Source of the DNA: a virus
Taxonomy: Duplodnaviria; Heunggongvirae; Uroviricota; Caudoviricetes
Reading direction: 5' to 3' (one strand)
DNA length: 19,783 nucleotides
IMG/VR virus record: IMGVR_UViG_2778261691_000003
Span: 1 to 19,783 of that record
The notes under the pieces are model-generated. The model was given only the letters and a program-made list of their open reading frames with translations. It was not told where the DNA came from and did no database searches. Positions 3,956 to 11,573 of the stretch are shown here, one piece after another. Position 1 is the first letter of the stretch. Every line of letters begins with the position of its first letter. The position numbers and the translations under genes are program-made.

Positions 3956-4031
3956 TGGTGCTGGTTAACGGACTTGAACCGCTACCCATTCGCTTACAAG
4001 GCGACTGCTCTACCATTGGAGCTAAACCAGC
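3956..4031 (-). tRNA. tRNA-Thr (anticodon UGU), phage-encoded
   Basis: 76-nt minus-strand sequence GCTGGTT TA GCTC CAATGGTA GAGC A GTCGC CTTGTAA GCGAA TGGGT AGCGG TTCAAGT CCGTT AACCAGC A CCA. Perfect 7-bp acceptor stem, 4-bp D stem, T-loop TTCAAGT, encoded CCA; anticodon loop CUUGUAA gives UGU. Confidence 0.75.
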
Positions 4032-4036
4032 ATGTT

Positions 4037-4111
4037 TGGCGGGACAGCGTGGGCTCGAACCACGATAAGAAGGTTAACAGCCTTCCGTAATGACCTTTAT
4101 ACGACTGACCC
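4037..4111 (-). tRNA. tRNA-like gene, possibly tRNA-Asn (anticodon GUU), atypical
   Basis: 75 nt: GGGTCAG TC GTA TAAAGGTCAT TAC G GAAGG CTGTTAA CCTTC TTAT CGTGG TTCGAGC CCACG CTGTCCC G CCA. Perfect T arm and anticodon stem, but one U-U mismatch in the acceptor stem and only a 3-bp D stem; lies 5 nt upstream of the tRNA-Thr. Confidence 0.45.
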
Positions 4112-7740: not shown

Positions 7741-9117
7741 TCATACGTCAGCCCCTTGTGCATATCGTCTGCCACGCGCAGCAGGTGCATTTGATGCTGT
7801 GCAAATCTGTCTGGCTTCATCCTGGTCACATGCAACAAAGTGTCCGTTACAGAACCGCTGGTAAACCGTACCAAGTGAGCCAAAACGGTTTTTCGTCACG
7901 ATGATTTCAGCAAATGGCGCGGCGCTACTGTTCTCGTCATATACCGCTTCCCGATAGAGCATGATGATTGAGTCTGCGTCCTGCTCAATGCTTCCTGAAT
8001 CACGCAAATCTGCGTTTGTCGGGCGTTTGTTTGGTCGCTTCTCAACATCGCGCGAAAGCTGACTTAGGGAGATAACAGGCGTTTTCAGGTCTTTCGCCAT
8101 CGCCTTCAGGCTTCCTGAGATGTGAGCAATTGCGAGGTCGTTGCGGTCTGCTTTCGGCTTCTCAATCAGGCCAAGATAATCCGCCATGATGAGTGACAGG
8201 TTTGGATTTTCCTGTTTGTGCCGCTCTGCGATTGAGCGAATTTCTTCTACCGATAACCGCGAGGCATCGACTACCCATACATCCAAATCTGCAAGCTGAC
8301 TCATGCCGTTAGCAACACGCGCCCAGCCTTCGTCATCCATCGATGCAGGATTTCGCAGTACGCTAACCGACATCCTCCCGGCGTTGGCAATGCTTCGCTC
8401 TGCAATCTGCAATGCGCTCATTTCCATTGAGAAAATCAATACCCCGCGCCGGACGTCAGAACCAGGAATAACGCGGCTTGCAACGCCTTCGGCAATCTTC
8501 AGCGCCAGCTCGGTTTTCCCCATACCAGGACGAGCAGCGATTATCACCAGGTCTTCCGCGTTCATCCCTCCGGTGATGGCATCAAGTTCTTCGATTCCGG
8601 TCTTCAGGGTATCTGACTCTTCTCCGTTCCTCAGACGCCTGTCAAGCGTGTCAGTGTAGTCGGTGATGATTTCCCCTAACCGTACCGGCTTAACCTCGTC
8701 ACGGGGCTTTCTGATGGCTGAAAGACGCTTTACAAGCTCATCCATCGCCTGACTCGATGCGTCGATGGTTCCGCTCTGAATTGGTTCACGCATTTCATCC
8801 ATGATTTCCAGCACCAGACGGCGGTGATAGTTATCCGCGACCATTCCGGCATATCCCTTCAGGTTTGCGGCACTCGGGCAGTTTTTGCTGGTCATCAGGA
8901 TTGACGTGAAATGCTCCTCTCCGCACGCCTCGGCAACCATCAGCGCATCGATTAGGTTTCTGTTTCTCGCCTGCTTGCGGATAACCTCGAAGGCTTTCCG
9001 GTAGAGCGGAATTGAAAACGCTTCCGGCTCCAGCGTTGCCAGAACGTCGCTGGCGGTTGGAGTTAATCCACCAATCAGCAGGCCACCGATAACGCTCGCT
9101 TCGATATCCTGTCTCAT
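7741..9117 (-). CDS. DnaB-family replicative DNA helicase (phage-encoded, in place of lambda P)
   Basis: 458 aa with Walker [17 protein letters not shown] and DnaB-like C-terminal region; ATG overlaps the O stop (ATGA). Confidence 0.9.
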
Positions 9118-9944
9118 GCAATCCCCCTGTCTGCAAACTTCCCTTCCCGTACTCCCGTTAACGAATCTTCCCTCAGCAGGTAATCAAAATCTGCCGTCCA
9201 GCCAGTGTCGTTGTCTCCGAAGTAAAACGGCTTGGCCTGATGCACAAACGCCCTGACATACGCTCTGAAACCGTCCACGTTTGGCGTTTTCAGTTGTGGG
9301 ATGATTTTCTTCAGGCGGCGTTTGCGTTTCTCGTTGACCGCAACAGCGTGTGGCAGTCTGTCACCGACTTCGGTGTTGTAGGCGTTCAGGAAGGATTCGT
9401 AGTCGATTCGTTCTGCCTTGCGCCGTTCAGGTTTAACCTGCCCATCGCCGCCCCCGTTAGGGGGTAAGGGGGTATTTGTATTTATTGTCTTTTGTATATT
9501 GTCTTTTGTGTTTGACTGATTCGGTAAATTGCTTTTTACCGATTTGGTGAAGCTTTGTTTTACCGAATTAGTAAATGTTTTACCGAATCCGTTAACTTTC
9601 GTTTTCCACTCGGAAATGTTTGTATTCATACCAACTTGACGCCCCACCTGAATGAGAACTCCCATTCTGATAAGCTCGTTTTTGGCGGTAGAGCATTTGG
9701 TTGGTGCCATGCCAGTGAGTTCAGCGAACTGTTCGTTTCCGATCCAATCTATTTTTTTGTTGTAACCGTATGTCTTGCGCCACACAGCCATAACAATCAG
9801 TAACTGATGTAGAGTAAGCCCAGAAAGCATGGCGGCTTCTAACAGTGTGTTTGCAGTCCGAGTGTAGCCATCTTCGAGTTCTGCCACGCGATGCTCCACG
9901 ACCTCCAGTTGAGGCCTGTAATCAGCTAACTTAACGACGCCCAT
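9114..9944 (-). CDS. O: replication initiator, O-like (lambda O-type N-terminal origin-binding domain, different C-terminal domain)
   Basis: 276 aa; [46 protein letters not shown] resembles the lambda O N-terminus; AGGAG lies upstream of ATG 9942-9944; iteron DNA lies in the linker-coding part of the gene. Confidence 0.85.
9470..9600. other. replication origin inside the O gene: AT-rich repeats plus four iteron-like TTACCGAAT-type motifs
   Basis: attgtcttttgt occurs twice (9483-9494, 9498-9509) in an AT-rich block; ATTCGGTAA at 9520-9528 and the inverse TTACCGAT/TTACCGAAT at 9537, 9560 and 9580, spaced about 20 bp apart. Confidence 0.6.
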
Positions 9945-10092
9945 GTTTCACTCCTGCTTTGGCTAGTCTGTAAACACCAACAAGGCGCTCTGCGAACGCC
10001 CTGTTATTTGCTGCGGCTACCACCAATCCCTCAGGTGAATCAGGGTGTCGAATCTCTTCTTTTTCCTGGTATTTCTTACGACGTTTTGCCAT
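9931..10092 (-). CDS. small basic ORF (53 aa) between cII and O
   Basis: ATG 10090-10092 preceded by CAGGAGTAATT, which resembles the lambda O ribosome-binding site as recalled; my translation [53 protein letters not shown]; its end overlaps the real O start by 14 nt. Below the 60-aa ORF-track cutoff. Confidence 0.35.
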   Translation of the reverse strand: MAKRRKKYQEKEEIRHPDSPEGLVVAAANNRAFAERLVGVYRLAKAGVKHGRR

Positions 10093-10100
10093 AATTACTC

Positions 10101-10178
10101 CTGTGGATTGATCCAGTAATGACCTCAGAACTCCATCTGGATTTGTTCAGAACGCTCGGTTGCCGCCGGGCGTTTTTT
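10101..10178 (+). ncRNA. oop: oop-like antisense RNA overlapping the cII 3' end (coordinates approximate)
   Basis: Plus-strand terminator GCUCGG-UUGCCG-CCGGGC + UUUUUU (10154-10178) sits in DNA that reads like the lambda cII 3' end / oop terminator as recalled; the 5' end is inferred from the lambda oop length, not seen. Confidence 0.5.
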
Positions 10179-10421
10179 ATTGGTGAGTCCATCAAGCGCA
10201 TACTTAAAAGCCCTGCTAATCGGACTGATGTCTGATGCCATTCCGAAAGCACACAAGACCGAAGCAATAAATCTCCAGTCCGTTCTGCTTATCTTCGATT
10301 CATGACAGCCAATCATCTTTGCCAGACCGCGCTGGGTAAGCGTTGACAGGTTGATGAGTAAATCTGTTTCTGCGCGATCAATTTCTCGCTGTGTTGGCTT
10401 GCTGTAACTTGCTTGTGTCAT
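10125..10421 (-). CDS. cII: CII transcriptional activator (chimeric: non-lambda N-terminal part, lambda-type C-terminus)
   Basis: 98 aa; the C-terminus TNKKRPAATERSEQIQMEF is the lambda CII C-terminus, while the first ~78 residues differ from lambda. Confidence 0.8.
   Translation of the reverse strand: MTQASYSKPTQREIDRAETDLLINLSTLTQRGLAKMIGCHESKISRTDWRFIASVLCAFGMASDISPISRAFKYALDGLTNKKRPAATERSEQIQMEF

Positions 10422-10856: not shown

Positions 10857-11573
<717 letters not shown>

Follow-up and report, generated by a model that had tools for sequence, protein, structure and literature searches.

A conserved 53-codon gene of the HK97 gp53 family overlaps the replication initiator start in a lambdoid prophage and accompanies helicase-encoding modules

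In the 19,783-nucleotide stretch of prophage DNA analysed here (the window), a 53-codon open reading frame (ORF) lies between cII and the gene for the replication initiator and is, judged by its mode of evolution, a genuine protein-coding gene under purifying selection. By gene order it opens, as first cistron, the replication module of a lambdoid prophage of the HK97/Sf6 type, and by sequence match it is already known as a member of the HK97 gp53 family and not a new find. Our best explanation, to which we give a probability of roughly 55%, is that its product is made together with the initiator and acts as an accessory factor of helicase-encoding replication modules, a role read from gene linkage.

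The small ORF occupies positions 10092-9931 of the minus strand, with its ATG at 10092-10090 and its stop codon TAA at 9933-9931. On the same strand the cII stop codon (TGA, 10127-10125) is followed by GAGGTCATTACTGGATCAATCCACAGGAGTAATT-ATG up to the small ORF, and a Shine-Dalgarno (SD) motif AGGAG is found at 10098..10102; in lambda the same ribosome-binding site (RBS) serves O. The encoded peptide is basic, with 14 lysine or arginine residues against 6 aspartate or glutamate residues. The initiator begins at ATG 9944-9942, its frame being +1 to that of the small ORF; its own AGGAG, six nucleotides upstream (9951..9955, minus strand), sits in the small-ORF codons for A-G-V. Initiator start and small-ORF stop fall within a 14-nt dual-coding overlap, ATGGGCGTCGTTAA (9931..9944, minus strand). 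A preliminary description made from the letters of the window had reported the sequence joining the cII stop to the ATG, as well as a 53-codon basic ORF overlapping the O start (ATG 9942-9944, own AGGAG); its letters are exact on the minus strand, and coordinates, SD motif, overlap and basic character are all confirmed. It had further stated that this ATG context is the O start in lambda, which is true on the lambda record, where the ATG lies at 38686.

The initiator gene (9114..9944, minus strand) encodes a Phage_rep_O N-domain and is of the HK97 gp54/P22 gp18 type, and the neighbouring gene (7741..9117, minus strand) encodes a DnaB-like replicative helicase of the HK97 gp55/P22 gp12 type. 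On the other side lie the gene for a cII-family activator with an HK97-like body and a lambda-identical 3' end (10125..10421, minus strand), cro (10759-10559, minus strand) and a lambda-like cI (10860-11573, plus strand). The prophage is a mosaic, in which lambda-type cI and cro are joined to the HK97-like cII body, the lambda-identical cII 3' end and oop, and an HK97-type replication module. Two neighbouring genes, for tRNA-Thr(TGT) and tRNA-Asn(GTT), occupy 3956-4111 on the minus strand, downstream of replication and nin genes. The gene order cII - small ORF - O - DnaB is common to the window, HK97, Sf6 and Stx2 phage 1717.

All 53 residues of the small ORF (hereafter also type A) align with positions 1-53 of the PHROG 1331 profile (E 4.3e-37), and the ORF is 98% identical to HK97 gp53, Sf6 gene 42, ES18 gp58 and epsilon34 gp49 and to ORFs of several Stx phages. 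Family membership is indicated by this match together with the position overlapping the initiator and the coding-type evolution described below. These four relatives and the window are alike in position, RBS, 14-nt overlap and DnaB-type module, and they differ in that residue 2 is Ala instead of Thr in the window (the codon NCA being kept) and that the window prophage has lambda immunity; nothing else material sets them apart. Ninety-seven phage records hold the ORF, almost always labelled 'hypothetical protein', which is also the PGAP label in the E. coli records listed, and the function label of PHROG 1331 is 'unknown function'. Most copies are 95-99% identical, and the commonest sequence was found on more than 1,000 contigs. 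A 231-nt block with the small ORF was present in 1,073 of 5,426 complete E. coli genomes (561 at a coverage of at least 80%). The ORF represents a long-standing conserved small protein of well-studied phages (HK97, Sf6, ES18, several Stx), and a tenth or more of the complete E. coli genomes carry its block.

The family is narrow and confined to Enterobacterales prophages. When 1.84 billion representative proteins were searched with a profile, just 24 relatives were recovered, all of 29-84 amino acids, with none fused to a larger protein and none distant, and homology supplies no clue to a function. Neither Pfam nor NCBIfam gave a match to the small ORF, and a sequence profile search of the PDB returned nothing meaningful (best E-value 6). 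Hayes et al. 2012 have already described the layout cII-oop-"orf"-O-P, in which the orf, by their account, is a homologue either of P22 orf48 or of HK97 gp53; lambda 'is naturally missing' it. In the searchable literature we found no expression or function experiments on the HK97 gp53 family or on DUF2740, the Pfam family of the P22 protein; the 'orf48' of the Silas accessory-gene screen proved unrelated, its numbering being internal to that study. Two loci carry an enterobacterial lambdoid prophage under a non-enterobacterial label, one in a metagenome-assembled genome labelled Bacillota bacterium (L003, 98% identical to the window ORF) and the other in Chryseobacterium sp. 18061 (L005); contamination or mis-binning is the likely source of these taxon labels.

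The length of the ORF is not in itself beyond chance, because the ORF list of the window contains many spurious frames of similar size; conservation across relatives is what takes it beyond chance. The preliminary description had proposed conservation of the frame in related prophages as a check, and the outcome favours a real gene, with the frame intact in 97 of 97 protein-anchored loci and in 43 of 44 DNA-anchored copies among the IMG/VR matches listed. In the sole disrupted copy seen (IMG/VR locus L200), the A5 run GGAAAAAG, ~30 nt from the beginning of type A, has lost one nucleotide, which could be a sequencing error or a real prophage frameshift. Two further loci are decaying replication modules in which the small ORF is still intact: in Symbiopectobacterium (L016) the initiator is frameshifted, and in an IMG/VR locus (L037) the helicase is deleted and the initiator runs into a Q-like gene.

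For the analysis of selection we used a divergence set of 14-15 loci with 60-98% amino-acid identity, taken from species-representative genomes of different enterobacterial species and drawn from Edwardsiella, Trabulsiella, Yokenella, Citrobacter, Chimaeribacter, Enterobacter, Serratia, Symbiopectobacterium and other genera. All of these diverged loci possess a 52-55 codon ORF with an SD motif, and every indel is a multiple of three. The selection test was confined to codons 9-44 (36 codons), which are free of known cis signals. Across 15 diverged loci this core displayed a pS of 0.66 and a pN of 0.14, corresponding to a pN/pS of 0.21; variation was seen at 36 of 36 third positions and 11 of 36 second positions, and there were no in-frame stops. 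When the core was read in the two shifted sense frames, pN/pS rose to 1.5 and 2.8 with 22 and 35 stops, respectively, and the antisense frames contained 9-25 stops. The comparison of diverged loci thus indicates that codons 9-44 are constrained at the protein level. Invariant residues include L23, A27, F33, A34 and R36. In an AF2 model based on a 32-sequence alignment, residues 1-20 were predicted to be disordered and charged and residues 21-49 to form a long kinked helix, at moderate confidence (mean pLDDT 68), and a Foldseek search of the model against the PDB gave 0 hits.

These values bear on a reading in which there is no gene at all, and in which the conservation is due to cis elements (pO, the 5' end of oop and the translation-initiation region of the initiator) combined with recent horizontal spread of the boundary sequence described below. 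Real cis signals do lie at the two ends of the ORF, overlapping it, and the 95-99% identity of most copies would fit recent spread. However, the central 36 codons, free of any known signal, are nevertheless 3-periodic, stop-free and constrained at the pN/pS given above in loci whose upstream contexts are unrelated, and indels always preserve the frame. This reading is effectively refuted and we consider it exceedingly improbable. The small ORF is a compact case of 162 nt used in three ways: codons 1 to ~9 correspond to the antisense pO promoter region, codons 9-44 to the protein core, and codons 46-53 hold the SD motif and start codon of the downstream initiator.

The antisense signals lie on the plus strand. 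An extended -10 element of pO, TGcCATAAT (10087..10095), includes in its CAT the complement of the small-ORF ATG, and a weak -35 element, CTGGTA, falls at small-ORF codons 7-9 with a spacer of 18. A putative oop-like antisense RNA (10103..10180, its start placed by homology to lambda oop) would overlap the cII 3' end, inside which an oop-type terminator hairpin (10149-10176) is followed by a T6 run. By sequence this is a lambda-type oop/pO unit, with the -10 over the start codon and a predicted RNA of ~77 nt ending at a rho-independent terminator in the cII 3' end. The preliminary description had placed the oop promoter opposite the small ORF, and the extended -10 and the oop-type terminator bear it out. 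A sigma-70-like site was found at the same place in 15 of 15 diverged loci (mean score 8.9 against a background of 5.4, the loci being related and the P-values accordingly optimistic), and a terminator-like hairpin upstream in 11 of 15, compared with 8% of background windows (again for related loci). A scan of the whole window at Rfam gathering thresholds returned only two tRNAs and no match to the oop family. An OOP-like non-coding RNA has been detected at this position by RNA-seq in the P22-like prophage BTP1 (PMC7067206).

Comparison with the lambda record shows how closely the two junctions agree. From the cII 3' end to ATGnCAAA the window and lambda are identical but for four substitutions, and the -10, the oop terminator, the RBS and the ATG are alike. 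In lambda, however, O itself starts at this ATG (MTNTAKILNF...), the small ORF is missing and the P loader serves as partner, whereas in the window the ATG opens the small ORF. The -35 region of pO also differs from that of lambda because it falls inside the small ORF in the window; for comparison, a lambda/P22 hybrid studied by Hayes et al. 2012 carries the lambda -10 together with the P22 -35.

A 33-bp lambdoid boundary sequence, ACTGGATCAATCCACAGGAGTAATTATGGCAAA (10085..10117), combines the 5' end of oop with the -10 of pO, the RBS and the start codon. Hayes et al. 2012 defined ACTGGATCaATCcACAGGAGTaATTATGaCAAA as a conserved sequence of 33 bp that consists of the pO promoter and the 5' end of oop, citing it as 'sequence 5' of Clark 2001, and the Sf6 record marks the stretch as bsq5. 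The boundary sequence forms the left edge of a mosaic cassette of ~204 nt (9914..10117, minus strand) that comprises the boundary, the small ORF and the first 10-11 initiator codons. The window, HK97 and Sf6 carry near-identical versions of the cassette between divergent flanks, and on the right the cassette ends within the initiator gene, at codon 10-11. The initiators behind type A always share a 10-residue start, with the variants M[GSA]V[VA][KRN]L[ASE]DY[RQ], of which D-Y-R/Q is kept through synonymous changes in the diverged loci. Their bodies fall into three classes, HK97/P22-gp18-like, Sf6-gp43-like and lambda-O-like; the last is 92% identical to lambda O residues 19-157 (139 amino acids) and differs in the first 16 residues and the whole C-domain. 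As judged from this pattern of identity, the small ORF and the first 10 initiator codons move as one recombinational cassette, which shows that a mosaic joint can fall within the initiator gene, at codon 10-11. The insertion at a mosaic junction suggested in the preliminary description stands as regards the junction, with the boundary sequence on the left and initiator codon ~10-11 on the right; it does not stand as a new insertion, the ORF being a long-annotated HK97 gp53 family member.

The slot behind the boundary sequence has alternative occupants. In P22, P6, HK620 and Stx2-86 it is filled by a 48-amino-acid ORF (type B), known as P22 orf48, HK022 gp53 or HK620 hkaW and catalogued as Pfam DUF2740 (PF10872), PHROG 1913 and Swiss-Prot YO48_BPP22. 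P22 orf48 matches PF10872 at 2e-28, and the small ORF of the window has no match to this profile and does not belong to DUF2740. Homology of the two types was considered and rejected, with an hhalign probability of 0.1% against P22 orf48. P22 orf48 nevertheless resembles the small ORF of the window in being small, basic and initiator-overlapping, in using the same slot, boundary and RBS, and in occurring in helicase modules only. The two differ in that P22 orf48 has an 8-nt overlap and precedes initiators starting MSNL or MSNIS, whereas the small ORF has the 14-nt overlap and its own 10-residue initiator start. The 48-amino-acid DUF2740 ORF is labelled 'tail protein' in RefSeq and in PHROG 1913 (positions 1371-1517 in both L099 and L100; HK620 and Stx2-86), which is almost certainly a mis-annotation because the ORF sits in an early replication operon.

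Among the IMG/VR matches listed, a 214-amino-acid gene with a T5orf172/MUG113 domain takes the same slot behind the boundary sequence in three loci (L143, L180 and L206). In L143 it overlaps an O-like start and is followed by genes for a DnaC-like (IstB_IS21) loader and a Ren-like protein. Since this gene can fill it, the slot also behaves as an accessory-gene hotspot. In the Stx1a phage Stx1_EH1992 an unrelated 77-amino-acid ORF (PHROG 1153; L101, 451-684) has a 14-nt overlap with a different initiator start. The overlap of a small ORF with an initiator start seems to be a design that recurs.

The stop/start overlap of type A is invariant in all 15 diverged loci, which suggests joint production of the small protein and the initiator. 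The same invariance could be claimed for a pure translational-coupling leader, in which translation of the ORF delivers ribosomes to the initiator start and the peptide has no function. Such a leader would also account for the strong lambda-O RBS that drives the small ORF, and for the recurrence of the overlap design with unrelated ORFs (8 nt in type B, 14 nt in Stx1_EH1992). It does not account for the conserved residues of a sequence whose synonymous sites are close to saturation (core pN/pS 0.21), and the initiator has a good SD of its own at optimal spacing, whose motif (GGAG, GGGG or GGAGG) is kept in 15 of 15 diverged loci. We detected no conserved RNA structure over the initiator SD (alifold -1.6 kcal/mol, single-sequence z-score 0.03), and coupling by SD masking is therefore rejected. 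With its own AGGAG and no masking structure the junction does not have the make-up of a translationally coupled leader, and some reinitiation by proximity could occur. A leader peptide for O, which the preliminary description had offered, is thus not supported as a sole role, in view of purifying selection and of the lack of a conserved RNA structure that would make O dependent; as a complete explanation we regard it as very unlikely. Fusion of gp53 to the initiator by frameshifting was rejected as well, the initiator frame having a TGA two codons upstream of its ATG.

The preferred reading, a small protein that assists helicase-encoding modules, draws on the identity of the genes behind the slot. 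We scanned IMG/VR by boundary DNA alone, because a protein-based bias was to be avoided, and examined 119 loci among the matches listed. Type A was present in 44 loci, of which 37 were classifiable; 34 of these encode a DnaB-like helicase of two classes, three a 626-amino-acid Toprim + DnaB_C primase-helicase and none lambda P. For type B the corresponding figures were 29 loci and 24 classifiable, with 14 DnaB-like helicases, 10 Toprim-helicases and no lambda P. Where the initiator itself begins at the boundary ATG (MTNTAKILNF..., ~43 loci), ~33 loci encode lambda P and two a DnaC-like IstB_IS21 loader, and none a helicase. The three loci with the T5orf172 gene have O and a DnaC-like loader, read through in L143. 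Types A and B taken together were thus accompanied by a phage-encoded SF4 helicase in 61 of 61 classifiable loci among the IMG/VR matches listed, an association that could in part be linkage within a ~1-kb module, as the loci are not phylogenetically independent. Neither type was found with lambda P or a DnaC-like loader among these matches. One apparent exception, L193 ('window-like O with lambda P'), turned out to have a truncated lambda O.

Recombinants joining type A to lambda O-P should form easily, because one initiator behind type A has a 139-residue stretch that is 92% identical to lambda O. There were none among the IMG/VR matches listed, and their absence suggests selection, with linkage and shared ancestry as possible partial contributors. 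Both types combine freely with every class of helicase and of initiator, which argues against tight co-adaptation with any single partner. The helicase-only pattern shared by both types makes a role as a small accessory factor of helicase-encoding modules most likely.

The small regulator proposed in the preliminary description is a possible reading. A different assignment of this sort would see in the ORF an accessory or regulatory small protein apart from the mechanics of replication, for example a modulator that acts alongside CII and oop in the lysis-lysogeny decision, or a factor for host takeover or anti-defence carried in a recombination hotspot beside the boundary sequence. That the slot accepts interchangeable, non-homologous occupants (type A, type B and the T5orf172 gene) would suit such a factor, as would its free reassortment and its place next to cII, oop and a known mosaic boundary. 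Against this, the small ORF was found solely fused by overlap to an initiator start, and the division between helicase-encoding and loader-encoding modules was strict among the IMG/VR matches listed. The ORF is moreover linked to the initiator and not to cII, because the upstream genes differ widely. We therefore judge a regulatory role of this kind to be rather unlikely, though less so than the leader.

For the accessory factor of helicase-encoding modules that we favour, the following course of events may be envisaged. The small ORF would be translated from the pR transcript through the conserved RBS that serves O in lambda, to give a 53-residue basic protein with, according to the AF2 prediction, a disordered, charged N-terminus and one long helix. 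This protein could assist in bringing the phage helicase to the initiator-origin complex or in loading it there, possibly by way of the conserved 10-residue tail of the initiator; alternatively, it may keep host DnaB/DnaC out. As a more specific and tentative extension, HK97-gp53-type and P22-orf48-type proteins might possibly be analogous, non-homologous cofactors dedicated to SF4 helicases, serving either as mini loaders or recruiters that work with the initiator tail or as DnaB/DnaC antagonists. If this is true, they would take the place that belongs to lambda P or to DnaC-like loaders where a phage borrows the helicase of its host. To our knowledge, it is not well explained how phages of the P22/HK97 type, which have no loader of the lambda P/DnaC type, load a DnaB-like helicase of their own. 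The split between helicase-encoding and loader-encoding modules makes the small ORF and P22 orf48 specific and cheap genetic targets for this question.

The N-terminus of lambda O contains the ClpX-recognition motif TNTAKI, which the G-V-V-K-L stretch of the window initiator resembles. By this analogy the 10-residue start might be a degron or a partner-binding tail. The same 10-residue start (9914-9944, minus strand) shows conservation of its protein sequence and travels with the small ORF over three otherwise unrelated initiator N-terminal regions (L002, L134, L163 and L186).
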